The notes under the pieces were generated by a model. The model saw only the letters and a list, made by a program, of their open reading frames with translations. It did not search any database and was not told where the DNA came from. From an uncultured Bdellovibrionales bacterium (GTDB lineage Bacteria; Patescibacteriota; Minisyncoccia; Moranbacterales; UBA1568): a DNA stretch of 64,000 bases. Positions 5,636-50,652 of the stretch are shown here, in pieces (the stretch's first letter is position 1; every line of letters starts with the position of its first letter). The position numbers and the translations under genes are program-made. The stretch is taken from contig CAZCNN010000003.1 of assembly GCA_964500505.1 (NCBI GenBank), positions 176 to 64,175 of the forward strand, read 5' to 3'.

Positions 5636-6184
5636 TTATTCGGGGACGATCAGGGCATTGAACCCCATAGGTCCACGCTTCACCTCTTCTTCAAAACGAT
5701 GAGGAACCGTGATGCTCGTGATAAAGGCGCTCAGGTTTTCTTTGGCTTTGTCCTGCATGGCCTTTTCGCGACCACGGAGTACGATTTCGATTTTTACTTT
5801 GTTCCCCTTGGTCAGAAATTTCTCAGCCTGTGTCTTTTTGAAGAGGAGATCATGAGTATCAGTGCGGAAACCGAGACGGATGCCCTTGGTTTCAACCTTT
5901 TTCTGCTTGGCCTTCTGTTGCTGCTCCTGCTTAGCGGCCTTGTACTGGAGCTTGCCGTAGTCAGTGATTTTGCAGACAGGAGGCTTGGCCAGAGGGGACA
6001 CTTCAACGAGGTCAGCTTCTTGCTCTTGAGCGAGTAAGATAGCTGCTGAGGTATCCATGATACCGCGATTCTCGCCATTCTGGTCAATGACCATGACCTG
6101 AGGCACGAGAATCTTCTCGTTGATACGAGCATGCTCTTTGACCTGGACCTTTGGTTTCGGTCGATTGTGTCTTCGTCGTCTCAT
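5636..6184 (-). CDS. infC: translation initiation factor IF-3
   Basis: Conserved IF-3 N- and C-domains (INEKILVPQVMVIDQNGE...). The operon context is infC-rpmI-rplT. Confidence 0.9.
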   Translation of the reverse strand: MRRRRHNRPKPKVQVKEHARINEKILVPQVMVIDQNGENRGIMDTSAAILLAQEQEADLVEVSPLAKPPVCKITDYGKLQYKAAKQEQQQKAKQKKVETKGIRLGFRTDTHDLLFKKTQAEKFLTKGNKVKIEIVLRGREKAMQDKAKENLSAFITSITVPHRFEEEVKRGPMGFNALIVPE

Positions 6185-6308
6185 TTTCAGCTTTTTTAAA
6201 AAAAGTGGACCCTGTTAGAAAACTGTCAAAACCGCCTCCTAGTAATTTTCGGCTGTCAGTACCTGAGATATTCTCATATATCAAGTATCGTTGGCAGACT
6301 TCTAACGG

Positions 6309-6710
6309 GGTGGAGTTGATGGGAATTGCACCCATGTCCAGAGAAGTTTTTCCAAAATAGTCTACAAGCGTAGTCAACCTTGTGTACGGGCAGGAGGTAG
6401 AAGGGAGACAAAATCCTCAAGCGAGTTCTTCTTTTGCAATACGTTCGGAGGGTAAAAGAAAAAGAAATTCCCTGGTCACGTCTCGATAATATGACACCAG
6501 TGGTTCCTTACCGAGAATCAGGATACTGATGGCGTCGCCAGTAATTAGGCGAGCGCAAGACTGTAAGAAGGGGCAAAAGCTTGCGCGATTGCATTCTTGG
6601 TCTTTGTGATGAAGTTTGCATTTATCATCGTGAGAACGAGATTTACGACCGTGTTCTCAAGGTCGGCTTGCGTATTTTGAAAGTACAACCTGTCGAGTCT
6701 AAACAACCCC
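6309..6710 (-). ncRNA. ssrA: tmRNA (SsrA), one-piece; about 402 nt
   Basis: On the minus strand the 5' end GGGGUUGUUUAGACUCGACAGG matches the tmRNA 5' consensus (compare B. subtilis GGGGACGUUACGGAUUCGACAGGG). The 3' end carries a T-arm-like hairpin AUGGG-UGCAAUU-CCCAU, then CAACUCC-A-CC, which pairs with the 5' GGGGUUG and gives the diagnostic G3:U70 wobble. An internal tag frame GCA AAC ... CUU GCG CUC GCC UAA encodes ...SYSLALA*. The gene lies downstream of smpB. Confidence 0.7.
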
Positions 6711-6830
6711 GCCTACACTACAAACAGAGTTTGTAGAGTATGGCGGGGCTTGCCTATACCCGCCACACTTCGATTCGCGATGTGGGCGGGCCTAGCCGCC
6801 TCCATCTGCTGAAAGTGTAAGCGCGATCCT

Positions 6831-7088
6831 CTAGCGGAGGTCGCTTATGCGTCGTTTGAGGTACTGTCTACCGAAGCCCGTCTTCAACTGAAGTTCTCTT
6901 TTCAGAGCATCTCCTTTTTGATTGCAGGCTTCGTAGTACAAAAGAATGAATGGTTTTCTTTCTTTTGTTACCTCGTTTCTTCCAGCATTGTGCTCTTGGA
7001 AGCGACGTTTTAAATTATTCGTGTATCCAATGTACAGCTTCTGATCTTTGAGACTTTGTAATACGTAAACGTAGTACATACATTTCAA
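6831..7088 (-). CDS. GIY-YIG nuclease family protein (stand-alone, 85 aa)
   Basis: YVYVLQS...KLYIGYTNNLKRRFQEHN is a canonical GIY-YIG motif. The start overlaps the smpB stop. Confidence 0.8.
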   Translation of the reverse strand: MKCMYYVYVLQSLKDQKLYIGYTNNLKRRFQEHNAGRNEVTKERKPFILLYYEACNQKGDALKRELQLKTGFGRQYLKRRISDLR

Positions 7089-9368: not shown

Positions 9369-11018
9369 ATGCTAATAAGTATGAAACAAGCCCTTCAGAA
9401 GAAAATTGAAATGGCTCTCCAGGCGCTCCAAGAGGCAGGAGCCTTGCCTGTTTTCGTGCTTCCTCCGGTTTCGGTTGAACGACCCAAGGATGATCGGTTC
9501 GGAGAATATACGACGAACGTCGCTTTGGTCTTGTCCAAACTGGCCAAGAAGAGTCCAGTGGATATCGCGGAACTTCTGAAAGAAAAGATCCTGAATCAAC
9601 CTGCCCGAAACGCTTCGCGTAACGATGCGGGCGGGGCTCAGGATGACGAAGCGTTATTTCAAAACATTGAGATTGCTGGGCCTGGCCATCTCAACTTCTA
9701 CTTGGCGCAACATGAAATTGGAAAAGGAGTTGCTACGATTCTCAAGGAAGGGAAAGAGTATGGTGGGAGCACGCTCGGTCAGGGCATCAGAGTGAACAAT
9801 GAATTTATTTCTGCCAATCCGACGGGACCACTGACGGTAGGGAATGGTCGCGGAGGGTTTTATGCTGATAGCGTGGCACGAGTACTTCGCAAAGCAGGCT
9901 ATGAGGTGACCAACGAATACTACGTGAACGATGCTGGCGAACAGATCATGAAGCTTGGTCATAGCGTCCTTAAGGATGCCGAAGCGGTCTATGGTGGAGA
10001 CTACATCGAACAGTTAGCAGGAGCGAACCAGCAAACGGGTGTACGAGAGACGGGTGAATGGGCCGCCAACGAAGTACTGGAAAACATGATCAAGAAGTCG
10101 GTCGCAGAAAAAATGCAGATTCATTTTGATATGTGGACCTCGGAGAAGAAACTGATTGCGGATGGCTACGTCGAGCGGGCTATCAGTATCCTGAAAGAAA
10201 AAGCATTGACCTTTGAAGAGGACGGTGCCCTGTGGCTTCGGACGACAGAGTTCGGTGATGACAAGGACCGGGTGCTCGTGAAGAGTGACGGATCCAAAAC
10301 CTACTTTGCTTCTGATGCGGGCTACATTCTCCATAAGATGGAGCGGGGATTTACGGTGTTCATTGAAAGTTGGGGGGCCGATCACCATGGCTATATCAGT
10401 CGCTTCAGAGCGGTTGCACAGGCGCTCGGCTTTACTGGTGACATCCGGTTTCTCATCGTACAGCTGGTCAAGGTAGTGAAAGACGGCGTCGAAGTGAGGA
10501 TGAGTAAGCGCGCGGGCAATGTTGTGACCATAGATGAACTGATCGAGACAGTCGGGCATGATGTGGCCCGCTTCTTCTTCCTCATGTACGCCCCAGAGAC
10601 GCACATGAACTTTGATCTTGGTCTCGCCGAAGAACGCTCGCAGAAGAATCCGGTCTACTATGTGCAGTATGCGCATGCGCGACTCTCGAGTATCCTCAGG
10701 AAAGCAGAAGAGGAGGGAATTTCTGGTCGTGGTGACCCCTCGCTTCTCGTACATGTCAAAGAGCGTGAACTCATTCGGGAGCTGATGTTTTTCCCAGAGC
10801 TCGTAGAGACGGTGGCGACGGACTACTCTGTTCACAAGCTCCCTCAGTACGCGATGAAGCTGGCTGACAAGTTCCATTCGTTCTATGATGCTTGTCGAGT
10901 GATTGATAGTGAAGAGAAGGAGCTCAGTACTGCTCGATTGGAGCTGGTGCGAGCGACGCGAATCGTCCTCGCCGAGACGCTCACGCTTATGGGTATCAGT
11001 GCGCCAGAAACAATGTAA
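9369..11018 (+). CDS. argS: arginine--tRNA ligase
   Basis: Arg_tRNA_synt_N-like N-terminus, the core SANPTGPL...YYVNDAGEQ, a DALR anticodon-binding C-terminus (YVQYAHARLSSI) and a terminal Met. The class I HIGH position reads TVGN rather than HxGH (see findings). Confidence 0.85.
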   Translation: MLISMKQALQKKIEMALQALQEAGALPVFVLPPVSVERPKDDRFGEYTTNVALVLSKLAKKSPVDIAELLKEKILNQPARNASRNDAGGAQDDEALFQNIEIAGPGHLNFYLAQHEIGKGVATILKEGKEYGGSTLGQGIRVNNEFISANPTGPLTVGNGRGGFYADSVARVLRKAGYEVTNEYYVNDAGEQIMKLGHSVLKDAEAVYGGDYIEQLAGANQQTGVRETGEWAANEVLENMIKKSVAEKMQIHFDMWTSEKKLIADGYVERAISILKEKALTFEEDGALWLRTTEFGDDKDRVLVKSDGSKTYFASDAGYILHKMERGFTVFIESWGADHHGYISRFRAVAQALGFTGDIRFLIVQLVKVVKDGVEVRMSKRAGNVVTIDELIETVGHDVARFFFLMYAPETHMNFDLGLAEERSQKNPVYYVQYAHARLSSILRKAEEEGISGRGDPSLLVHVKERELIRELMFFPELVETVATDYSVHKLPQYAMKLADKFHSFYDACRVIDSEEKELSTARLELVRATRIVLAETLTLMGISAPETM

Positions 11019-11027
11019 AACAAAAAA

Positions 11028-11192
11028 ATGATCAATCGTTTGCCGAAACAGTATCGGGAAAAGTACAAGAAGAAACGTGGTTGGGATGAAGAGCTCATCA
11101 TGTTCGCTTTCAAGGTGGTCGGTTCGACGGCGCTTGTGTTTATCGTAGCGGCCGGAGTAGATGTCTATCATCTCATTCATTAAGGGTATGCC
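11028..11192 (+). CDS. small ORF (54 aa), single-TM hypothetical protein
   Basis: Read directly: MINRLPKQYREKYKKKRGWDEELIMFAFKVVGSTALVFIVAAGVDVYHLIH. It is below the track cutoff and fills the gap between argS and the next gene. Confidence 0.3.
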
Positions 11193-11754
11193 CCAGATCA
11201 CGTTTTATCTTGTGCGTCATGGCGAAGCGGAAAACAATGTGCTTCATATCTTAAATTCGGCCGGGGCTAAGAAGGAATACTCTTTGACTGAAAAGGGCCG
11301 AGCGCAGGCGAAACAAGTAGCGGCGTATTTGGCGACTGTAGGGGCCGATGCACTCTATAGTTCGCCAATCCTCCGGGCTAAAGAAACCGCCGAGGCGATT
11401 GCCGAGACGACGGGACTCTTGATCCAGTTCGATGACCGGTTGTGGGAGGTGGGAATGGGGCGTTTTAACGAGCAATCGCAGGAGGAGCTTCTCAAGAAGT
11501 ATCCCGAGCCACAGATGCGCCTCACGCCTGACACCGAGGATGAGATGGAGAGTATACTCCTGGTCCATGGTCGCCTGGGATCCTTTCTCAAGGAGATCAA
11601 GGACAAACATACTGGCCAAAAAGTAATCTTGGTATCACATGGGGACCCACTCGAACAACTGCACGGCATCCTCACTCGCGAGGGACCGGGGCGAGCAGCT
11701 GAAGGGTGGTACCCTGAGAAGGGATCTTGTACGGAAGTGGTCTGGCAATACTGA
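11188..11754 (+). CDS. histidine phosphatase family protein (phosphoglycerate-mutase-like)
   Basis: RHG catalytic motif in YLVRHGEAENN, a later H in VSHGD. Start taken at MPQITFY. Confidence 0.7.
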   Translation: MPQITFYLVRHGEAENNVLHILNSAGAKKEYSLTEKGRAQAKQVAAYLATVGADALYSSPILRAKETAEAIAETTGLLIQFDDRLWEVGMGRFNEQSQEELLKKYPEPQMRLTPDTEDEMESILLVHGRLGSFLKEIKDKHTGQKVILVSHGDPLEQLHGILTREGPGRAAEGWYPEKGSCTEVVWQY

Positions 11755-11768
11755 GAGAGGCGTCGCGG

Positions 11769-11794
11769 GACGCTTCTTTTCTTTTGCCTCTGAG
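11769..11794 (+). terminator. intrinsic terminator
   Basis: gcgtc-gcgg-gacgc hairpin followed by ttcttttctttt. Confidence 0.6.
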
Positions 11795-11838
11795 AGTGGT
11801 ACGGTTGAAGCATCTTGGCTTCTCAGAGGAGAATCACC

Positions 11839-13158
11839 ATGCAGTTCCTTATCATGCTGTTGATGGGACTCCTTACGGGGAGTGCCGTAGCGTACGAGAT
11901 GAACTCGGTACCTGACCAGTCGTTTGTGGCGCATCCGTGTGATCGCTACACCCGCTACTTTACGGAGTGCCTGCGACTGTATGAAGCAAGAGACCGAGCG
12001 CAAGCGGAGTCACTTCGCATCGTGCGGGTGGTGGATACTCGGGGTCGTGCTACTTTGGTACGCGAGTTCGTGCTCATTGCTTATGACCTCGAAGGGGAAG
12101 GATGGCACACCATCAGGCTCACGATGCCCCTGGTGGGGAATAGCACCTTTCAGCCGACGGTGCTCACGCCTGGGTATACGGTGCGTCGGATCAAGGGTCA
12201 GAGCTTCAACAAGATGTTTTTTCAGGTGACCTGGGCGGGACGTGAACTCCGGACCTATGGAGCGAAGCATCTCTCGCTTCCCGAGGACTTTCGGATCAAG
12301 CACCCGGATGCGATGACTCTCGAGGCCATAGAGGTGATCTATCTCTCGACACCCCCTCACCTCGTAAACCCCGAGTTTGTCCAAGCAGGGCAGGAGTTCG
12401 TCGTGAGGAAAACAGAAGAGGTACTGGCTGAACTTAAAGCGGAAGGAGTGCTGTCACGTGCTTATCCGGGCCGCCTCGTGTCAGCCGTCATCCATCCGTG
12501 GGTGCCACTTCACCTCGTCCTGGCTGAACAGGTTGACCCATGCCTCCTCAAGAGCCGTAGTCGCGTCTGTCAGCGGTTGATACCGGAGAACCCATTCCGA
12601 AGCGATGACGAAGTGATGCAGGCAGTGCTGACCGAGTTTGTCGTGAATGGCGAAGACGCCTTTCGCTATCTTGTCTCGAGTGGCAAGGCTCGGGGAGCGC
12701 TCCAATTCACCAACACCTATCGGGGCACAGCTCCCGGGACCTATGACATAGTGCGTCTTGCCTATCCACAGGCAGTGCTCGATCCTGATTTCCGGAGCGG
12801 GACTGAGGATTTTCGGAATAGCCTCAAGATGGCCATCCTCTTGATAGACATGGAGCTCGCGTATGGGAGCACACCAGCGTGGGTGCGCCAGGCGTTCCTC
12901 GAGGACTATCGACTGGGACTCCTCTGTCCGGCCGCCGCCTACAACGGTGGGGCGCAACAGTGTCGCAAGTTTGGGACACTGGTCGCTGAGTACCGGAGAG
13001 CACGGAGTCTCAGGGAAGTGACGTTTCATACGCTCACTGATGGCCATTTTCTCTCTTGGGTGGCACGGAGTCCCTGGGCCTTCAATCCGGAAACACACGT
13101 ATATCTCGAGAAGATTCTCCAGGTCTTCGGATCGGGACTCCTCCGAGAGACCAAGTAG
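11839..13158 (+). CDS. hypothetical secreted protein, GC-rich and Arg-rich, no recognisable domain
   Basis: Start at MQFLIMLLMGLLTGSAVA (signal peptide) preceded by a gaggag RBS. Local GC is visibly higher than in neighbouring genes. Confidence 0.5.
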   Translation: MQFLIMLLMGLLTGSAVAYEMNSVPDQSFVAHPCDRYTRYFTECLRLYEARDRAQAESLRIVRVVDTRGRATLVREFVLIAYDLEGEGWHTIRLTMPLVGNSTFQPTVLTPGYTVRRIKGQSFNKMFFQVTWAGRELRTYGAKHLSLPEDFRIKHPDAMTLEAIEVIYLSTPPHLVNPEFVQAGQEFVVRKTEEVLAELKAEGVLSRAYPGRLVSAVIHPWVPLHLVLAEQVDPCLLKSRSRVCQRLIPENPFRSDDEVMQAVLTEFVVNGEDAFRYLVSSGKARGALQFTNTYRGTAPGTYDIVRLAYPQAVLDPDFRSGTEDFRNSLKMAILLIDMELAYGSTPAWVRQAFLEDYRLGLLCPAAAYNGGAQQCRKFGTLVAEYRRARSLREVTFHTLTDGHFLSWVARSPWAFNPETHVYLEKILQVFGSGLLRETK

Positions 13159-13225
13159 GACACGCGGTTTTGTCACTGACAGACCGCTTTTTTCTTGCCC
13201 AAATTGCCCATGGTATGATGGGGGT

Positions 13226-14296
13226 ATGAATACGATCATCAAAGAAACTTTGGACCTGCTCCCGGGCGGACTCCTCATCACAGACTTGGATTCTCGGGTC
13301 CTCTATGCCAGTGCGGCGCTCGAACGTCGGACAGGTTTTGCGGTAGCGGAAATCGTCGGAAAAAAGCCAGGCGAGCTCTGGGGTGGTCGGATGCGGAAGC
13401 AGTTTTATACAGCACTCTGGCACACCATCGGCGGTGAGTGTCAGCCCTTTGTCGGTGAAGTAGCGAACACCCGGAAGAATGGCGCCAAGCATGACGAGCA
13501 CATCTATATCCTCCCTATCCGCGATGGTAGAGGCACTACCCGATACTTTGCCGAGGTCCATCCTGAACTCACCTCGAGAGAGAGCGAGCTCATGTTTGCT
13601 CATGAATTTCTCGGCCGGACCAAGGGTCAGTCTCAAGACGCTCCATTTTTCGACTGGCTGTTCACCCGTCTCGCTCGGAGAGAAAATGGGGAAACACGAT
13701 CATTCCCTGCGCTTGGTACCGATACGCTCATTGATCCCGCGACCTTTCTCTATCAGTCATTGATCCTCCCGACCGAACAGTTGTATGCTCGGCGACGTGA
13801 TGACGCACTCCTCATCGCTCGAGCCAAGGAAGACCCAGAGCAGTTCTCGGCCCTCTACAAGAAGTATGCCCCTTCGCTTCGAGAATATTTCTTGAAGCGT
13901 CTCTCTGGAGAGCGGATCTTGGCTGAGGATCTTCTCCAAGAGACGTTTCTCCGGGCCTTTCGTTATCTCCCGACGTTTCGCTCGGCCAATGCTTCGTACT
14001 ATACCTATCTCCTCCGGGTGGCGCACAGCGTCCTCGTCAATCAATTTCGGAAGGAACGATATGAAACGGTAGCGCTCACTGGGAACGAAGAAGAGAGAGT
14101 GGCTGAGGAAGGTCGGGTGTGGCCAGACCTCGAGTCTCTCCTCCTCAACCTGTCACCGCTTGAGCGTGAGATTATGCTCATGAAGTACCGAGATGGGCTC
14201 AAGGTGCGAGCTATCGCCACGGAGGTCGGGAAAAGCGAGAATGCGGTCAAATTGATTCTTTCCCGGACCCGGAAAAAGCTAAGAGTAAGGAGCTAG
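13226..14296 (+). CDS. PAS-domain / ECF-type sigma-70 fusion protein (N-terminal PAS, C-terminal sigma regions 2 and 4)
   Basis: The N-terminal roughly 120 aa has a PAS-like pattern (LLITDLDSRVLYASAALERRTGFAVAEIVGKKPGELW). The C-terminus has sigma region 2 (EDLLQETFLRAFRYL) and region 4 HTH (LSPLEREIMLMKYRDGLKVRAIATEVGKSENAVKLILSRTRKKLR). Confidence 0.7.
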   Translation: MNTIIKETLDLLPGGLLITDLDSRVLYASAALERRTGFAVAEIVGKKPGELWGGRMRKQFYTALWHTIGGECQPFVGEVANTRKNGAKHDEHIYILPIRDGRGTTRYFAEVHPELTSRESELMFAHEFLGRTKGQSQDAPFFDWLFTRLARRENGETRSFPALGTDTLIDPATFLYQSLILPTEQLYARRRDDALLIARAKEDPEQFSALYKKYAPSLREYFLKRLSGERILAEDLLQETFLRAFRYLPTFRSANASYYTYLLRVAHSVLVNQFRKERYETVALTGNEEERVAEEGRVWPDLESLLLNLSPLEREIMLMKYRDGLKVRAIATEVGKSENAVKLILSRTRKKLRVRS

Positions 14297-14324
14297 ACTC
14301 TCGGCGTCGGACAAGCTAATAGGT

Positions 14325-14355
14325 AAGGTGTCATGATGACACCTTTTTTGCTTTT
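14325..14355 (+). terminator. intrinsic terminator after sigma-fusion gene
   Basis: aaggtgtcatgatgacacctt hairpin followed by ttttgcttttt. Confidence 0.7.
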
Positions 14356-14408
14356 TGGTGTTTCATAAGGAGCAAGTCACAGTTTACAAAATGTAATAGC
14401 AAAGCACT

Positions 14409-16523
14409 ATGCCACTCTACAAAGTCCAGAAGCGGAACGGCTCCATTGTCGACTTTGAGCTCGAGAAGATACATGATGCCATAACCAAAGCGGCGGAGGC
14501 AGTGGGGAATCTCGATAAAGCGGTGCCCGAGGCTCTCCTTATGGAGACCGAGGTCACCCTCGAAGAACTCTATGGAGAGGAAATCCCAACGGTCGAGCAG
14601 ATCCAGGACGTTGTCGAGGACGTCCTTATCCGGTTTGACTACGCTGAGATGGCCAAGGCCTACATCCTGTACCGAGAGAAGCGTCGAGAAGTTAGGGCGG
14701 ACAAGAACGTGGTGGTGGAGGTACAAAAGACCATCGATGAGTACCTGGGCAAGCTCGACTGGCGCGTCAATGAAAATGCCAATCAGGGGTATTCGCTTGG
14801 GGGGCTCATCTTGAATACGGCCGGGAACGTGGTCGCCAACTACTGGCTGTCCCATATCTACCCCAAAAATGTCGGTGAAGCTCATCGCAATGGTGACTAT
14901 CATATCCACGACCTCGCTATGTTTTCGGGTTACTGCGCCGGCTGGAGTCTCCGGGCGCTCCTCGAAGAAGGATTCAATGGGGTACCAAACAAGATAGAGT
15001 CAGCACCACCCAAGCACTTGTCTTCGGCTGTTTCTCAGATGGTGAATTTCCTCGGGACACTCCAGAACGAATGGGCGGGTGCCCAGGCATTTTCGAGCTT
15101 CGACACCTACATGGCACCGTTCGTGAAGAAGAAAGAGCTAGAGCTCCGAGAGAAGATCGCCAAGTATCATATTACCTTTGCCGGGAAAAAGGCCAAGGAG
15201 CAGTACATCGCCGATGAGGTGTACAACTATGTCTATCAGAACCTCCAGTCATTTGTCTTCAACCTGAACATCCCGTCACGCTGGGGTACCCAGACGCCCT
15301 TTACCAACATTACGCTTGATTGGGACTGCCCAGCGGATATGAAGGACAAACGTCTCCTCCTCGGAGGCCAACCGTTTGAGTATACCTTTGGCGAACTCCA
15401 AAACGAGATGGATATTGTCAATCGCGCCTTTATCGAGGTGATGTCGCGAGGCGACGCCAAAGGGCGGACCTTTACCTTTCCGATCCCGACTTACAACATC
15501 GGCAAGGACTTTGATTGGGAGAGTGAGAAGAATCTGCCACTCTTTGAGATGACCGCCAAATATGGCACACCGTACTTCCAGAACTTCGTCAATTCTGAGC
15601 TCAATCCGAGTGATGTCCGCTCCATGTGTTGTCGGCTCCAGCTCGATCTCCGTGAACTGCGGAAGCGGGGTGGGGGACTCTTTGGGTCGGCGGAGATGAC
15701 GGGCTCAATCGGGGTGGTGACGATCAATGCTGCCCGTATCGGCTACCTCGCCAAGGGCGACAAGGACAAATTCTTTGCCCAGGTGGATCGACTCATGGAA
15801 CTGGCCAAAACCTCGCTTGAGATAAAGCGTAAAGAAATTCAGAAGTGGATTGATGCCGGACTGTTCCCGTATACCAAGCGCTACCTCGGCTACCTCAAGA
15901 ATCACTTTTCGACTATCGGGGTGAATGGCCTAAACGAAGCAATCCGAAATTTTACCGACGACCAAGAAAACATCACGACGGACTGGGGTCATGACTTTGC
16001 CCTTGAGGTGCTCACGCACATGCAGGAAAAGATTAAGTCGTTCCAGGAGGAGACACACAACTTCTACAACCTCGAGGCGACACCAGCTGAGGGCACAACA
16101 AATCGCTTTGCCAAGGAAGACAAGAAGCGCTTCCCGGATATCCTCCAGGCTGGGACCCCTGACGCTCCCTACTACACCAACTCTTCCCAAGTACCGGTTG
16201 GCTATACGGACGATGTCTTTGAGGTACTCGACCTCCAGGATGACCTCCAGACCAAGTACACCGGGGGCACAGTCCTTCACTGTTATATGAACGAGCGGAT
16301 ATCGACGCCGGAGGCCTGTCGCAATCTGGTCAAAAAAATCCTGACCCACTATCGACTACCGTACATCACTATCACTCCGACGTTTTCGATCTGTCCCAAG
16401 CATGGCTACCTTTCAGGCGAACACGACTTTTGTCCGAAGTGTGACACCGAGCTCGGTATCACCGGCGAACGCTACGACGAAAGCTATCGGAAGACGTACG
16501 CGAGCGATACTGCCCACAAGTAA
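14409..16523 (+). CDS. nrdD: anaerobic ribonucleoside-triphosphate reductase (class III RNR) large polypeptide, lacking the glycyl-radical domain
   Basis: ATP-cone-like N-terminus and an NrdD core. It ends inside the C-terminal Zn-ribbon (CPKHGY...CPKC), so the RVxGY glycyl-radical motif is absent from this ORF. Confidence 0.85.
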   Translation: MPLYKVQKRNGSIVDFELEKIHDAITKAAEAVGNLDKAVPEALLMETEVTLEELYGEEIPTVEQIQDVVEDVLIRFDYAEMAKAYILYREKRREVRADKNVVVEVQKTIDEYLGKLDWRVNENANQGYSLGGLILNTAGNVVANYWLSHIYPKNVGEAHRNGDYHIHDLAMFSGYCAGWSLRALLEEGFNGVPNKIESAPPKHLSSAVSQMVNFLGTLQNEWAGAQAFSSFDTYMAPFVKKKELELREKIAKYHITFAGKKAKEQYIADEVYNYVYQNLQSFVFNLNIPSRWGTQTPFTNITLDWDCPADMKDKRLLLGGQPFEYTFGELQNEMDIVNRAFIEVMSRGDAKGRTFTFPIPTYNIGKDFDWESEKNLPLFEMTAKYGTPYFQNFVNSELNPSDVRSMCCRLQLDLRELRKRGGGLFGSAEMTGSIGVVTINAARIGYLAKGDKDKFFAQVDRLMELAKTSLEIKRKEIQKWIDAGLFPYTKRYLGYLKNHFSTIGVNGLNEAIRNFTDDQENITTDWGHDFALEVLTHMQEKIKSFQEETHNFYNLEATPAEGTTNRFAKEDKKRFPDILQAGTPDAPYYTNSSQVPVGYTDDVFEVLDLQDDLQTKYTGGTVLHCYMNERISTPEACRNLVKKILTHYRLPYITITPTFSICPKHGYLSGEHDFCPKCDTELGITGERYDESYRKTYASDTAHK

Positions 16524-16546: not shown

Positions 16547-16735
16547 ATGAGCCAGGAAGCAAACAATGAGAAGCGCACCCGCTGTGAAATCTGGACGCGC
16601 GTCATGGGCTATCATCGCCCCGTCTCGCACTTCAATATCGGCAAAAAGGCGGAGCACTATTCACGGAAGCACTTTGAGGAATGCGTCGCAGACAATACGT
16701 CTTTTGAGGCGCGCTATGGTGAACAAGCGGCCTGA
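16547..16735 (+). CDS. stand-alone NrdD C-terminal glycyl-radical domain (62 aa)
   Basis: TRVMGYHRPVSHFNIGKKAEHY matches the NrdD glycyl-radical signature RVxGYxRPVxxxNxGK. It sits 23 nt downstream of the nrdD stop, in a different frame, with stops in between. Confidence 0.65.
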   Translation: MSQEANNEKRTRCEIWTRVMGYHRPVSHFNIGKKAEHYSRKHFEECVADNTSFEARYGEQAA

Positions 16736-16741
16736 TCAATC

Positions 16742-17449
16742 TTGATGAAGCTCTCAGCTATCCAACGGTTCACGATGCTCGACTACCCCGACAGGGTGGC
16801 CTGTATCGCGTTTACTCCCGGATGCAGTATGCGTTGTGGCTTCTGTCACAACCCCGAGTTTGTGGTGCCGGAGCAGATTCGAGCGCTTGAGTCGGGGTTC
16901 ATCGCGACAGAGACGTTTTTCAATTTTCTCGACCAGCGTAGCGGACTCCTCGAGGGAGTAGTGGTCTCTGGTGGCGAACCGACTATCTGGCCGGACCTCC
17001 CTGATTTCATGCGGGAGATCCAGGCCCGAGGCTTTCTCACCAAACTCGATACCAATGGACGACACCCGGAGATGCTCGAGCGACTCCTCAGCGAGGGACT
17101 CGTTGATTATGTCGCCATGGATGTCAAAACATCGCTCTCAGAATATCCCAAGTTAGTCGGCGGTGGCGTCACCGGGGAGCAGATCATGAGAAGTATCGAG
17201 CTTTTGAAGACAGCAGGAATTCCCTATGAGTTTCGCACCACCCTTATCAAAGAAGTGCATACAGTGGAGGTGCTCGAGGATATGGCCGAGCTCCTCACCG
17301 GCGCCGAGCGTTACTATCTTCAGACCTTTCGTCCGGGACACACGCTTCATCCAACCTTTGCCAAGTACCATCCATTTTCGCGCGCTCTGATGGAAAAGTG
17401 GTGTCTCATGCTTGCTCCGCGGGTGGGCCAGGTGATGATTCGGGACTAG
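16742..17449 (+). CDS. nrdG: anaerobic ribonucleotide reductase activating protein (radical SAM)
   Basis: CxxxCxxC radical-SAM cluster motif CSMRCGFCHN, directly after the nrdD pieces. Confidence 0.85.
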   Translation: MMKLSAIQRFTMLDYPDRVACIAFTPGCSMRCGFCHNPEFVVPEQIRALESGFIATETFFNFLDQRSGLLEGVVVSGGEPTIWPDLPDFMREIQARGFLTKLDTNGRHPEMLERLLSEGLVDYVAMDVKTSLSEYPKLVGGGVTGEQIMRSIELLKTAGIPYEFRTTLIKEVHTVEVLEDMAELLTGAERYYLQTFRPGHTLHPTFAKYHPFSRALMEKWCLMLAPRVGQVMIRD

Positions 17450-17493: not shown

Positions 17494-17901
17494 ATGGTAG
17501 CGATCGAATGGAGCAAGAAGTACAGTGTCGGTGTGGAGATGTTTGACGAACAACACAAGGTGTTTTTTGGTATCATCAATGATCTCTATGCCTCGATCAT
17601 GGAGCGCAAAGAACGAGCGGTGCTCGGTGATATCTTTGATCAGTTGCTCAAGTACACGGATTTTCATTTTGAATCCGAAGAGCGTTACTTCGATGAGTTT
17701 CACTATGAGCATGCGGTCGAGCACAAAGAGGCACATCGACTTTTGACCGAGCGACTCCTCGCGCTCAAGGCACGCTGGGACGATGACGCGCTCGATAATC
17801 CCTATGAGCTCCTCGATTTTCTCGAAGACTGGCTGGTAGAACACATCATGGGTATGGACCGGCAGTATCACGAGTGCTTTCATACTCATGGTCTGAAATA
17901 G
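17494..17901 (+). CDS. hemerythrin-like (bacteriohemerythrin) protein
   Basis: His/Glu/Asp diiron ligand pattern of the HHE cation-binding domain: H...HFxxEE...H...H...D. Confidence 0.8.
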   Translation: MVAIEWSKKYSVGVEMFDEQHKVFFGIINDLYASIMERKERAVLGDIFDQLLKYTDFHFESEERYFDEFHYEHAVEHKEAHRLLTERLLALKARWDDDALDNPYELLDFLEDWLVEHIMGMDRQYHECFHTHGLK

Positions 17902-18260: not shown

Positions 18261-18638
18261 ATGACTCAAGAGTATCTTACTTTGAACAAGATTAGTTCAT
18301 ACAAGAAAGCCTTTGCGCTTTCCAATGTGGTTTGGGACATTGTGACGTTGTGGGAAGTATTCGCACGTCAGACAGTTGGTTCACAGTTTGCCCGAGCGAT
18401 TGACTCGGTATCGGCAAATATTGCCGAAGGATTCGGGAGATATGGGAAGAAGGATAAGGTATTCTTCTATCGAATTGCCCGAGCCTCTGTATATGAGTCG
18501 CTTGATTGGCTCGAAAAATCCAAGAGGCGGAATCTTATAGAAGAAAAAGATTACGAGTATATCTTCAAAAGCTTGAAGGAGCTACCAAAAGATATCAATA
18601 CATTGATTAAATATACAAACGACCATTTGAGTGACTAG
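18261..18638 (+). CDS. four-helix-bundle protein (TIGR02436 / 23S rRNA intervening-sequence protein family)
   Basis: 125-aa protein with the family pattern ...SVSANIAEGFGR...FYRIARASVYESLDWLE. Confidence 0.7.
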   Translation: MTQEYLTLNKISSYKKAFALSNVVWDIVTLWEVFARQTVGSQFARAIDSVSANIAEGFGRYGKKDKVFFYRIARASVYESLDWLEKSKRRNLIEEKDYEYIFKSLKELPKDINTLIKYTNDHLSD

Positions 18639-50569: not shown

Positions 50570-50652
50570 GCCGAGGTGGTGGAATGGTAGACACACGGGA
50601 CTCAAAATCCCGCGATAGCAATATCATGAGGGTTCAAGTCCCTCCCTCGGCA
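50570..50652 (+). tRNA. tRNA-Leu (anticodon CAA), long variable arm, CCA not encoded
   Basis: Acceptor GCCGAGG/CCTCGGC, anticodon stem CGGGA/TCCCG with loop CTCAAAA, a long variable arm, T-arm GAGGG-TTCAAGT-CCCTC, discriminator A. Confidence 0.85.

Follow-up and report, generated by a model that had tools for sequence, protein, structure and literature searches.

A single-polypeptide PAS-ECF sigma factor of Patescibacteria and its predicted class III ribonucleotide reductase operon

A stretch of 64,000 nucleotides (nt) of contig CAZCNN010000003.1 (assembly GCA_964500505.1), hereafter the window, carries a gene for a sigma factor of the extracytoplasmic function (ECF) type that is fused to a PAS domain (gene 2, protein PAS-sigma). 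The conserved functional partner of PAS-sigma is the nrdD-nrdG-hemerythrin operon that follows it, which encodes a class III ribonucleotide reductase (RNR) and was missed by an earlier note on this DNA. That note had joined the sigma gene to the gene in front of it (gene 1) as a module of two genes, rich in guanine and cytosine (GC) and horizontally acquired; the PAS-ECF fusion without an anti-sigma factor stood up to analysis, the module did not. We propose that PAS-sigma drives the nrdD operon with redox state or O2 as the signal, which appears rather probable from the data presented below, and the link between the sigma factor and nrdD, taken alone, is quite probable. PAS-sigma belongs to a large family that extends across the candidate phyla radiation (CPR, Patescibacteria) and has a clear predicted promoter and regulon, and it is more interesting than the earlier note stated. 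Related loci and homologous proteins are given below by their L and P numbers.

Gene 2 encodes PAS domain and sigma factor in a single polypeptide, which qualifies as an ECF sigma factor on all testable criteria. The N-terminal part matched PAS_9 (residues 15-110, 34.9 bits, Pfam cut-off 27), PAS_4 (residues 9-118, 32.5 bits, cut-off 23.1), the Pfam PAS model (24.5 bits, cut-off 22.6) and TIGR00229 (37.2 bits, cut-off 22.9). For the C-terminal part, matches were obtained to Sigma70_r2 (PF04542, residues 210-278, 46.2 bits, Pfam cut-off 24), Sigma70_r4_2 (PF08281, residues 302-352, 44.4 bits, cut-off 25.7) and the NCBIfam model sigma70-ECF (TIGR02937, 72.1 bits, cut-off 42.9), and none to Sigma70_r3 at E <= 0.1. 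As the PAS and the sigma models all scored above their curated cut-offs, the fusion is real. Regions 2 and 4 are separated by 23 amino acids (aa; residues 278 to 302), and between them the AlphaFold2 (AF2) model shows a disordered loop at 282-298 only. ECF sigma factors have been defined operationally by the lack of region 3 and by no more than 50 aa between sigma2 and sigma4 (PMC7826278), and PAS-sigma, without region 3 and with its gap of 23 residues, falls within this definition. Overall the model is compact and confident, with a predicted local distance difference test score (pLDDT) of 87.9 and a predicted template modelling score (pTM) of 0.67. The N-terminus conserved among approximately 100 homologues places the true start of the gene at the ATG at 13226 and not at 13040, where the listed open reading frame (ORF) begins. 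No anti-sigma gene adjoins the sigma gene, either in the window or in the loci of relatives, and neither a second sigma factor nor a PAS paralogue is encoded in the window. The earlier note had described a PAS-like fold fused to sigma regions 2 and 4 with no separate anti-sigma factor, and both statements are borne out; its suggestion that the fused PAS domain couples signal perception to promoter choice is plausible for a single polypeptide that has no partner anti-sigma factor.

Homologues of PAS-sigma comprise about 100 full-length proteins at 90% clustering, and the family forms more than 110 clusters at 50% identity, all of 330-385 aa and matching from end to end. Wherever a source is named, it belongs to the CPR/Patescibacteria (Moranii-, Magasanik-, Uhr-, Peri-, Gracili-, Nomura- and Paceibacteria). 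Database records name these proteins merely "sigma-70 family RNA polymerase sigma factor". Three relatives (P0236, P0261 and P0285) are 526-560 aa long and their PAS-matching stretch begins near residue 180-210, which suggests variants with an extra N-terminal domain, perhaps a second PAS. Among the TPA_asm records of metagenome-assembled genomes, several that are labelled "uncultured Bdellovibrionales", "Gammaproteobacteria" or "Planctomycetia" (L007, L008 and others) hold loci that are syntenic with and close to those of Candidatus Moraniibacteriota or other CPR. L007, labelled "uncultured Bdellovibrionales", is 97% identical to the window and has the same synteny. The organism labels on such third-party assemblies look unreliable.

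The surroundings of the sigma gene were surveyed by tblastn over 80 species-level genome loci with a flank of 7 kb. In 69 of the 80 loci nrdD lies downstream on the same strand, at less than 400 nt in 58, at 400-1000 nt in five and at more than 1 kb in six. It is on the opposite strand in one locus, and in another the contig ends. The linkage holds down to 32-35% identity of the sigma factor, in Uhrbacteria. The conserved order in relatives is argS, a 51-aa ORF, the histidine-phosphatase gene (His_Phos), PAS-sigma, nrdD, a small nrdD ORF, nrdG, sometimes hemerythrin, and ileS. Hemerythrin follows nrdG in this lineage only (the window, L001-L004, L007, L008, L010 and L024), where it may serve in protection from oxygen or aid oxygen sensing.

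The intergenic regions between the sigma gene and nrdD share a bipartite motif with the consensus TGACACCTTTT-N10-GTGTTTA, in which the gap of ten nucleotides is invariant in 58 of 62 cases. Taken as a promoter, it has TGAcAC as its -35 element with a T-tract behind it, and TGTTTA as its -10 element after a 16-nt spacer. With up to three mismatches allowed, the site in front of nrdD is the sole match in the 64 kb of the window (0.01 expected by chance), and a position weight matrix built from 63 unique sites gave it 45 bits and everything else in the window 8 bits or less. In 63 of the 69 loci the motif precedes nrdD by no more than 450 nt. It stays with nrdD in L038 and L041, where nrdD is 5 kb away from the sigma gene, and L053, L063, L071, L075 and L110 carry an additional copy ahead of the small nrdD ORF and nrdG. 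Upstream of gene 1 or of the sigma gene itself, no such motif occurs in the window. ECF promoters such as that of sigmaW (TGAAAC-N16-CGTA) are built in the same way, with TGAMAC at -35, a T-tract behind it, 16 nt of spacer and a short -10. The specificity of the motif for the nrdD context is thus directly observed; that it is an ECF-type promoter and is read by PAS-sigma we infer from its layout and position.

The site overlaps a hairpin with a T-run behind the sigma gene, AAGGTGTCA-TGA-TGACACCTT, which resembles a terminator; the -35 element before nrdD forms its 3' arm. At 43 of 73 unique motif sites a complementary arm is present further upstream, whereas the other 30 have none, and in Uhrbacteria the stop codon TGA of the sigma gene itself opens the motif. 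What is conserved is therefore the motif with its two blocks and not the hairpin. In three lineages the first block reads TGAAACC, and L053 and L070, which carry this variant, keep GTGTTT without any compensating change in the -10. A constraint by RNA pairing or by a dyad (ACACC/GGTGT) finds no support in these two loci. A reading of the motif as a NrdR box, which has 16 bp, or as an FNR box (TTGAT-N4-ATCAA) was rejected on account of spacing and asymmetry.

The motif could have another reader. It might be the promoter of a PAS-less ECF or housekeeping sigma factor, the operator of a dimeric repressor (ACAC-N17-GTGT dyad) or an RNA terminator or attenuator, with PAS-sigma standing beside nrdD for another reason. 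This would accord with the weak inverted repeat within the motif, with the 43 sites at which a hairpin followed by a T-run includes the motif, and with the loci of PAS-less paralogues described below, where nearly the same motif precedes hsp20. However, the two blocks are asymmetric (11 nt and 7 nt), and their fixed 16-nt spacing and the T-tract after the -35 are as in ECF promoters. The -10 block lacks A2 and T6 of the sigma-70 element TATAAT, the hairpin arm is absent from 30 sites, and the C-to-A changes in the -35 block of L053 and L070 are uncompensated. Moreover, the sigma gene is the sole conserved regulator gene nearby, and no conserved transcription factor gene accompanies it. A reader other than PAS-sigma is therefore considered clearly improbable, and PAS-sigma is retained as the candidate.

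An exact-pattern scan of 241 million metagenome records yielded 56 sites. In 30 cases nrdD or the small nrdD ORF follows directly, and at least 34 of the sites are closely preceded by a PAS-sigma gene; the remaining sites include Hsp20 genes (L103-L105) and four genes of the DegV family. In the latter (L093, L094, L116 and L129) the exact 18-base motif is located 64-66 nt upstream of the gene, on short contigs with no PAS-sigma in view; they may be additional members of the regulon, or the matches may be due to chance within one related lineage. In L062, L069, L073 and L141 the gene behind the motif encodes a D-2-hydroxyacid dehydrogenase. In L018, nirK, encoding copper nitrite reductase (TIGR02376, 332.6 bits), is located at 5658-6939 between gene 1 and PAS-sigma and is preceded by TGACACCTTTT-N11-GTGTTTC, which suggests that the sigma regulon reaches denitrification in some Moranbacteria-like genomes. 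Members of the regulon in metagenomes can be annotated by means of the pattern TGACACCTTTT-N10-GTGTTTA.

The closest ECF proteins without a PAS domain share 42-47% identity with PAS-sigma over the sigma part. Their genes were found upstream of hsp20 in all four loci examined, with htrA (Trypsin_2-PDZ) between them in three. Ahead of the hsp20 leader, TGACACCTTT(T)-N10/11-(G/T)TGTTAT is present in three of the four loci, and L144 has a degenerate variant. This looks like the promoter class of the PAS-less sigma clade. With two sister clades of sigma factors each encoded beside a target that carries the same kind of motif, the promoter reading is strengthened. In the paralogue loci about 350-500 nt separate the motif from hsp20 (L142 5955.., L143 5927.., L145 3747..). 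These leaders are partly conserved and GC-rich in places, matched no Rfam family and could be an undescribed structured leader or an RNA thermometer.

A promoter of the sigma gene itself emerged solely from the comparison of relatives; a sigma-70 promoter scan of 11000-14600 gave no sites. The extended -10 element TGGTATGAT is present upstream of the sigma gene in the window and in L001, L003, L005, L007, L008, L012, L014, L017 and L023, and is kept whether gene 1 or His_Phos precedes the sigma gene. In the window it ends 6 nt before the sigma ATG, so the sigma mRNA is leaderless or nearly so.

To find the likely signal, the PAS domain was compared with PAS domains of solved structure. By sequence, the nearest were those of MmoS (3EWK, E = 1.4e-14), NifL PAS1 (2GJ3, E = 1.9e-11) and LOV-type proteins that bind flavin mononucleotide; by fold, the nearest were NifL PAS1 (target TM-score 0.84, 30% identity), LOV domains and Aer. 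All of these closest relatives (MmoS, NifL, Aer and LOV) are flavoproteins. Residues of NifL were mapped in an ungapped HMMER alignment. NifL W87 and N102, which contact the flavin, correspond to W65, nearly invariant in the PAS-sigma family, and to the invariant N81. The PAS domain is the best-conserved part of PAS-sigma and bears the family signature GKKPGELWGG.M, in which P48, W52, G53 and M56 are invariant. A PAS domain with heme or an iron-sulphur (Fe-S) cluster was discarded, as the domain has no invariant His or Cys, and so was a LOV photoreceptor, for want of the adduct cysteine. On the side of the targets, NrdD and NrdG make up a glycyl-radical enzyme system that O2 destroys, and together with hemerythrin, NirK and the fermentative dehydrogenase they share a low-oxygen theme. 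Flavoprotein relatives and low-oxygen targets together favour flavin-based sensing of redox state or O2. For flavin redox sensing by the PAS domain, taken alone, we regard the chances as about even.

Several observations weigh against the proposed redox-responsive control of nrdD. In nine of the 80 loci nrdD was not found within 7 kb of the sigma gene. The PAS-less paralogue has a nearly identical -35, so that cross-recognition, or recognition by the paralogue alone, is possible. NifL E70, a signalling residue, is replaced by the invariant proline P48, and the adduct cysteine of LOV domains is absent from the family alignment. The flavin is assigned by similarity, and the family has an invariant signature of its own. 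The Hsp20 targets in L103-L105 would suit a general stress regulon no less than a low-oxygen one. Alternatively, the link to nrdD may be right, with a PAS domain that senses another cue, such as a metabolite or nucleotide pool or general stress, or that serves only dimerisation or stability. The missing E70 and LOV cysteine, the family's own P48, W52, G53 and M56, the Hsp20 targets and a sister sigma clade that governs htrA and hsp20 would agree with this. Against it stand the close solved relatives, which are all flavin sensors of redox or light, the conserved equivalents of W87 and N102, and the low-oxygen theme of NrdD/NrdG, hemerythrin, NirK and the dehydrogenase. We consider such a different role of the PAS domain unlikely and retain redox or O2 as the favoured signal.

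The following pathway is proposed. The sigma gene would be transcribed from its own housekeeping-type extended -10 promoter TGGTATGAT, and transcription would stop at the hairpin behind it. With no ECF motif upstream of the gene, there is no sign of autoregulation, and as an anti-sigma factor is lacking too, control would have to be post-translational, via the fused PAS domain. The PAS domain and the helical linker would hold the protein inactive or active. In the permissive state, probably the reduced or anoxic one, PAS-sigma would bind core RNA polymerase and initiate at TGACACCTTTT-N10-GTGTTTA, giving a transcript of nrdD, the small nrdD ORF, nrdG and hemerythrin, that is, the class III RNR operon. 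Because the -35 doubles as the 3' arm of the terminator, expression of nrdD would depend on the motif promoter and not on read-through. The signal would most likely be the cellular redox state or O2, perceived through a non-covalently bound flavin. Taken as a whole, a complete pathway from signal to promoter in one flavin-PAS-ECF protein of 356 aa, dedicated to class III RNR (with nirK or fermentative genes in some lineages), CPR-wide, acting in the place of FNR and NrdR and with the target -35 embedded in the terminator of its own gene, is put forward tentatively, at somewhat less than an even chance.

Table 1. Features of the window around the PAS-sigma gene, and RNA genes. Positions are those of the window; residue numbers refer to the respective protein.
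Feature	Position	Strand	Remarks
tmRNA	6308-6710	-	Rfam, 103 bits
Terminator-like hairpin and T-run after histidine-phosphatase gene (His_Phos_1)	11753-11780	+	Terminator scan; start of gene 1 transcription unit
Gene 1	11839-13158	+	439 aa; ORF and ribosome-binding site
Gene 1 protein, beta-rich domain			About residues 61-146
Gene 1 protein, divergent SLT-like domain			About residues 225-375
Hairpin GCGGT...ACCGC followed by TTTTTT	13164-13193	+	Sequence, centroid fold; probable gene 1 terminator
Extended -10 promoter of sigma gene, TGGTATGAT (TGG TATGAT)	13211-13219	+	Comparison of relatives
PAS-ECF sigma factor gene (gene 2)	13226-14296	+	356 aa
PAS domain	13250-13579		Residues 9-118
Helical linker			About residues 118-202 (~80 residues)
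Sigma region 2	13853-14059		Residues 210-278
Sigma region 4	14129-14281		Residues 302-352
Sigma gene terminator hairpin AAGGTGTCA-TGA-TGACACCTT and T-run	14325-14345	+	3' arm is the -35 of the nrdD promoter
ECF-type promoter motif TGACACCTTTT-N10-GTGTTTC (predicted)	14337-14364	+	Ends 44 nt upstream of nrdD ATG
-35 element TGACAC	14337-14342	+	16-nt spacer to -10
-10 element TGTTTC	14359-14364	+
nrdD, large part	14409-16523	+	704 aa, ATP-cone and NRDD; predicted first gene of sigma-dependent operon
Separate 62-aa ORF with C-terminal glycyl-radical motif of NrdD, CEIWTRVMGYHRPV	16547-16735	+	PF13597 profile positions 532-562 of 562
nrdG, radical S-adenosylmethionine activase of NrdD	16742-17449	+
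Hemerythrin	17494-17901	+	44 nt after nrdG; probably last operon gene in this lineage
tRNA	50570-50652	+	Rfam

Within the operon (Table 1), nrdD is split. The 704-aa ORF stops just past the first half of the C-terminal Zn-ribbon, and the 62-aa ORF, which carries RVMGY, follows in another frame after a gap of 23 nt. The split, with the small part as a separate ORF, is common to almost all related CPR loci. The stand-alone radical domain recalls GrcA/YfiD, the spare part of pyruvate formate-lyase; a literature search gave no description of a split NrdD with a stand-alone radical ORF. Between the motif and the nrdD ATG, a conserved leader of 120-135 nt is present in several lineages (L045, L051, L052, L054, L065, L066 and L083). 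In Uhrbacteria (L078-L086) a conserved hairpin, GGTACGGAG..CCGTACC, abuts the nrdD start codon. These leaders and hairpins may add a post-transcriptional layer of control. An Rfam scan of the window returned the tmRNA and the tRNA only; the nrdD leader gave no match.

Gene 1 and the sigma gene are not one unit. They adjoin on the same strand, 67 nt apart, and gene 1 is patchily distributed, both of which would accord with a horizontally acquired, co-regulated module in which the sigma factor has the secreted protein for its target or partner. However, gene 1 is present in five of the 80 loci and absent from the other 75, in which the sigma gene keeps its neighbours His_Phos and nrdD. A terminator-like hairpin with a T-run and the independent, conserved promoter of the sigma gene lie between the two, and relatives without gene 1 have an analogous hairpin and T-run after His_Phos. 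In some relatives gene 1 is inserted between His_Phos and the sigma gene, often it is not, and it represents a lineage-specific insertion in one Moranbacteria-like sub-lineage. An ECF promoter upstream of 11839, the start of gene 1, for which the earlier note had suggested a search, was not found; the sole match in the window is the one before nrdD.

Base composition likewise fails to join the two genes. No other 1.3-kb stretch of the window is as rich in GC as gene 1 (0.571 against a window mean of 0.519; z = 1.9, top 0.3% of 1320-nt sliding windows), and to this extent the visibly higher GC reported in the earlier note was correct. At synonymous sites there is no such shift: the GC content at third codon positions (GC3) of gene 1 is 0.650, approximately one standard deviation (sd) above the mean of 0.582 (sd 0.068; 52 crude ORFs), and its neighbours nrdD and nrdG have 0.678, which is above gene 1, and 0.648. 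The excess therefore resides in codon positions 1 and 2 and reflects amino-acid composition. Orthologues of gene 1 in L001, L018 and L021 are likewise offset by +4 to +7 points in genomes that differ in GC. The offset thus characterises the gene 1 family and does not point to recent transfer. In composition the sigma gene is unexceptional (GC 0.543, z = 0.86, GC3 0.602), which speaks against a GC-rich pair of genes. The region is flanked by argS, His_Phos and nrdD, and no mobility genes flank it. Horizontal acquisition as deduced from GC consequently finds no support, and a horizontally acquired, co-regulated module of gene 1 and PAS-sigma is already contradicted and very improbable indeed. 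A stronger compositional outlier than gene 1 is a 125-aa ORF at 18261-18638 with a GC content of 0.407 against 0.519 for the window, which matches the 23S rRNA intervening-sequence protein family (PF05635, 81 bits).

The gene 1 product had been described in the earlier note as a signal-peptide protein of 440 aa with no recognisable domain. The ORF (439 aa) and the signal peptide were confirmed: a GAGGAG ribosome-binding site is located 7 nt before the ATG, homologues start at the same aligned position, and the hydrophobic N-terminus, MQFLIMLLMGLLTGSAVA|YE, ends in AVA-Y and resembles a Sec signal peptide. It is also correct that the protein has no Pfam match at E <= 0.1, that of the soluble lytic transglycosylase (SLT) domain PF01464 included, and no NCBIfam match. 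Its motifs, however, align with those of homologues that carry PF01464. Among 5.8 billion proteins searched, 35 homologues were found, the most distant of which carry PF01464 SLT; 7 of 33 aligned homologues matched this model directly (best E = 4.9e-09). In the alignment E230, S280, A284, G286, Q289 and G371 are invariant and A366-G370 nearly so, and E230, the S..A.G..Q block (280-289) and AAYNGG (366-371) are in register with the SLT-positive members. In BLASTP, gene 1 and the SLT-positive P0150 matched with E = 3e-22 across the SLT motifs. Foldseek with the AF2 model (pLDDT 90.6) gave weak hints to MltF and phage LT_GEWL proteins, and a profile search of the PDB with the gene 1 family gave no meaningful match. 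We read the gene 1 product as a secreted, strongly divergent lytic transglycosylase with an additional N-terminal beta-rich domain; its assignment to the SLT type has good support from the sequence. With family 1 lytic transglycosylases (PF01464; Slt70, MltE, MltF) the protein shares the invariant Glu, S-x-A-x-G-x-x-Q, AAYNGG and the signal peptide. Unlike them, it is below Pfam detection, has Q or H and not S after the Glu, possesses the extra beta-rich domain and is confined to few CPR lineages. Gene 1 should accordingly be annotated as a divergent lytic transglycosylase, without a link to the sigma factor.

ECF sigma factors are normally restrained by separate anti-sigma factors. To our knowledge, the fused extensions described for them are located mainly at the C-terminus and do not constitute classical ligand-binding sensor domains. 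With ECFs that carry such extensions, be they C-terminal (ECF41, ECF42, CorE/ECF44) or N-terminal (BldN/ECF121, SigC/ECF36), PAS-sigma shares the minimal sigma2-sigma4 core and a fused domain to which the regulatory role is ascribed, and like them it lacks an anti-sigma factor of its own. It differs from them in that its extension is N-terminal, about 200 aa long and contains a genuine PAS sensor domain. Two typical ECF traits, a co-encoded anti-sigma factor and an autoregulated promoter, are both lacking, and the regulon is apparently in essence one operon, nrdDG. N-terminal extensions of ECFs are rarer and generally shorter, and only that of BldN is well described (PMC7826278). Two reviews, on non-canonical ECFs (PMC8999054) and on ECF evolution (PMC7671368), are silent on PAS fusions. 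Full-text literature searches yielded no account of a PAS domain fused to an ECF sigma factor or of nrdD under the control of a sigma factor; an unnamed ECF group may already hold the family.

The best matches of the PAS domain in sequence and fold, NifL PAS1 and MmoS PAS-A, are redox sensors that bind flavin adenine dinucleotide, and the equivalents of W87 and N102 are kept in PAS-sigma, which departs from NifL by its proline at the E70 position and by its own signature. NifL acts through binding of NifA and MmoS through a kinase, whereas the output of PAS-sigma is a sigma factor in the same polypeptide. In E. coli, FNR activates nrdDG anaerobically, and NrdR represses RNR operons through sensing by its ATP-cone. 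The logic proposed for PAS-sigma is the same, namely that synthesis of class III RNR is confined to suitable (anoxic) conditions. In contrast to FNR, an Fe-S activator, and NrdR, a repressor, the regulator proposed here would be a promoter-specificity subunit, and its motif is unlike the boxes of both. For the CPR/Patescibacteria, whose genomes are tiny, whose regulators are few and for which hardly any genetics exists, this provides a concrete and testable model for the oxygen response and for control of the supply of deoxyribonucleoside triphosphates.

A cytoplasmic PAS input that alters transcription is also found in one-component proteins that combine PAS with a helix-turn-helix domain and in the RsbP-sigmaB partner-switching system. 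PAS-sigma differs from these in that its output is the sigma factor itself; neither a DNA-binding activator nor a kinase, a phosphatase or an anti-sigma factor intervenes. A PAS-sigma protein with a sharp promoter and a regulon of one operon could serve as an attractive orthogonal switch and, if the proposal is true, would be the simplest device from sensor to transcription in the ECF family.

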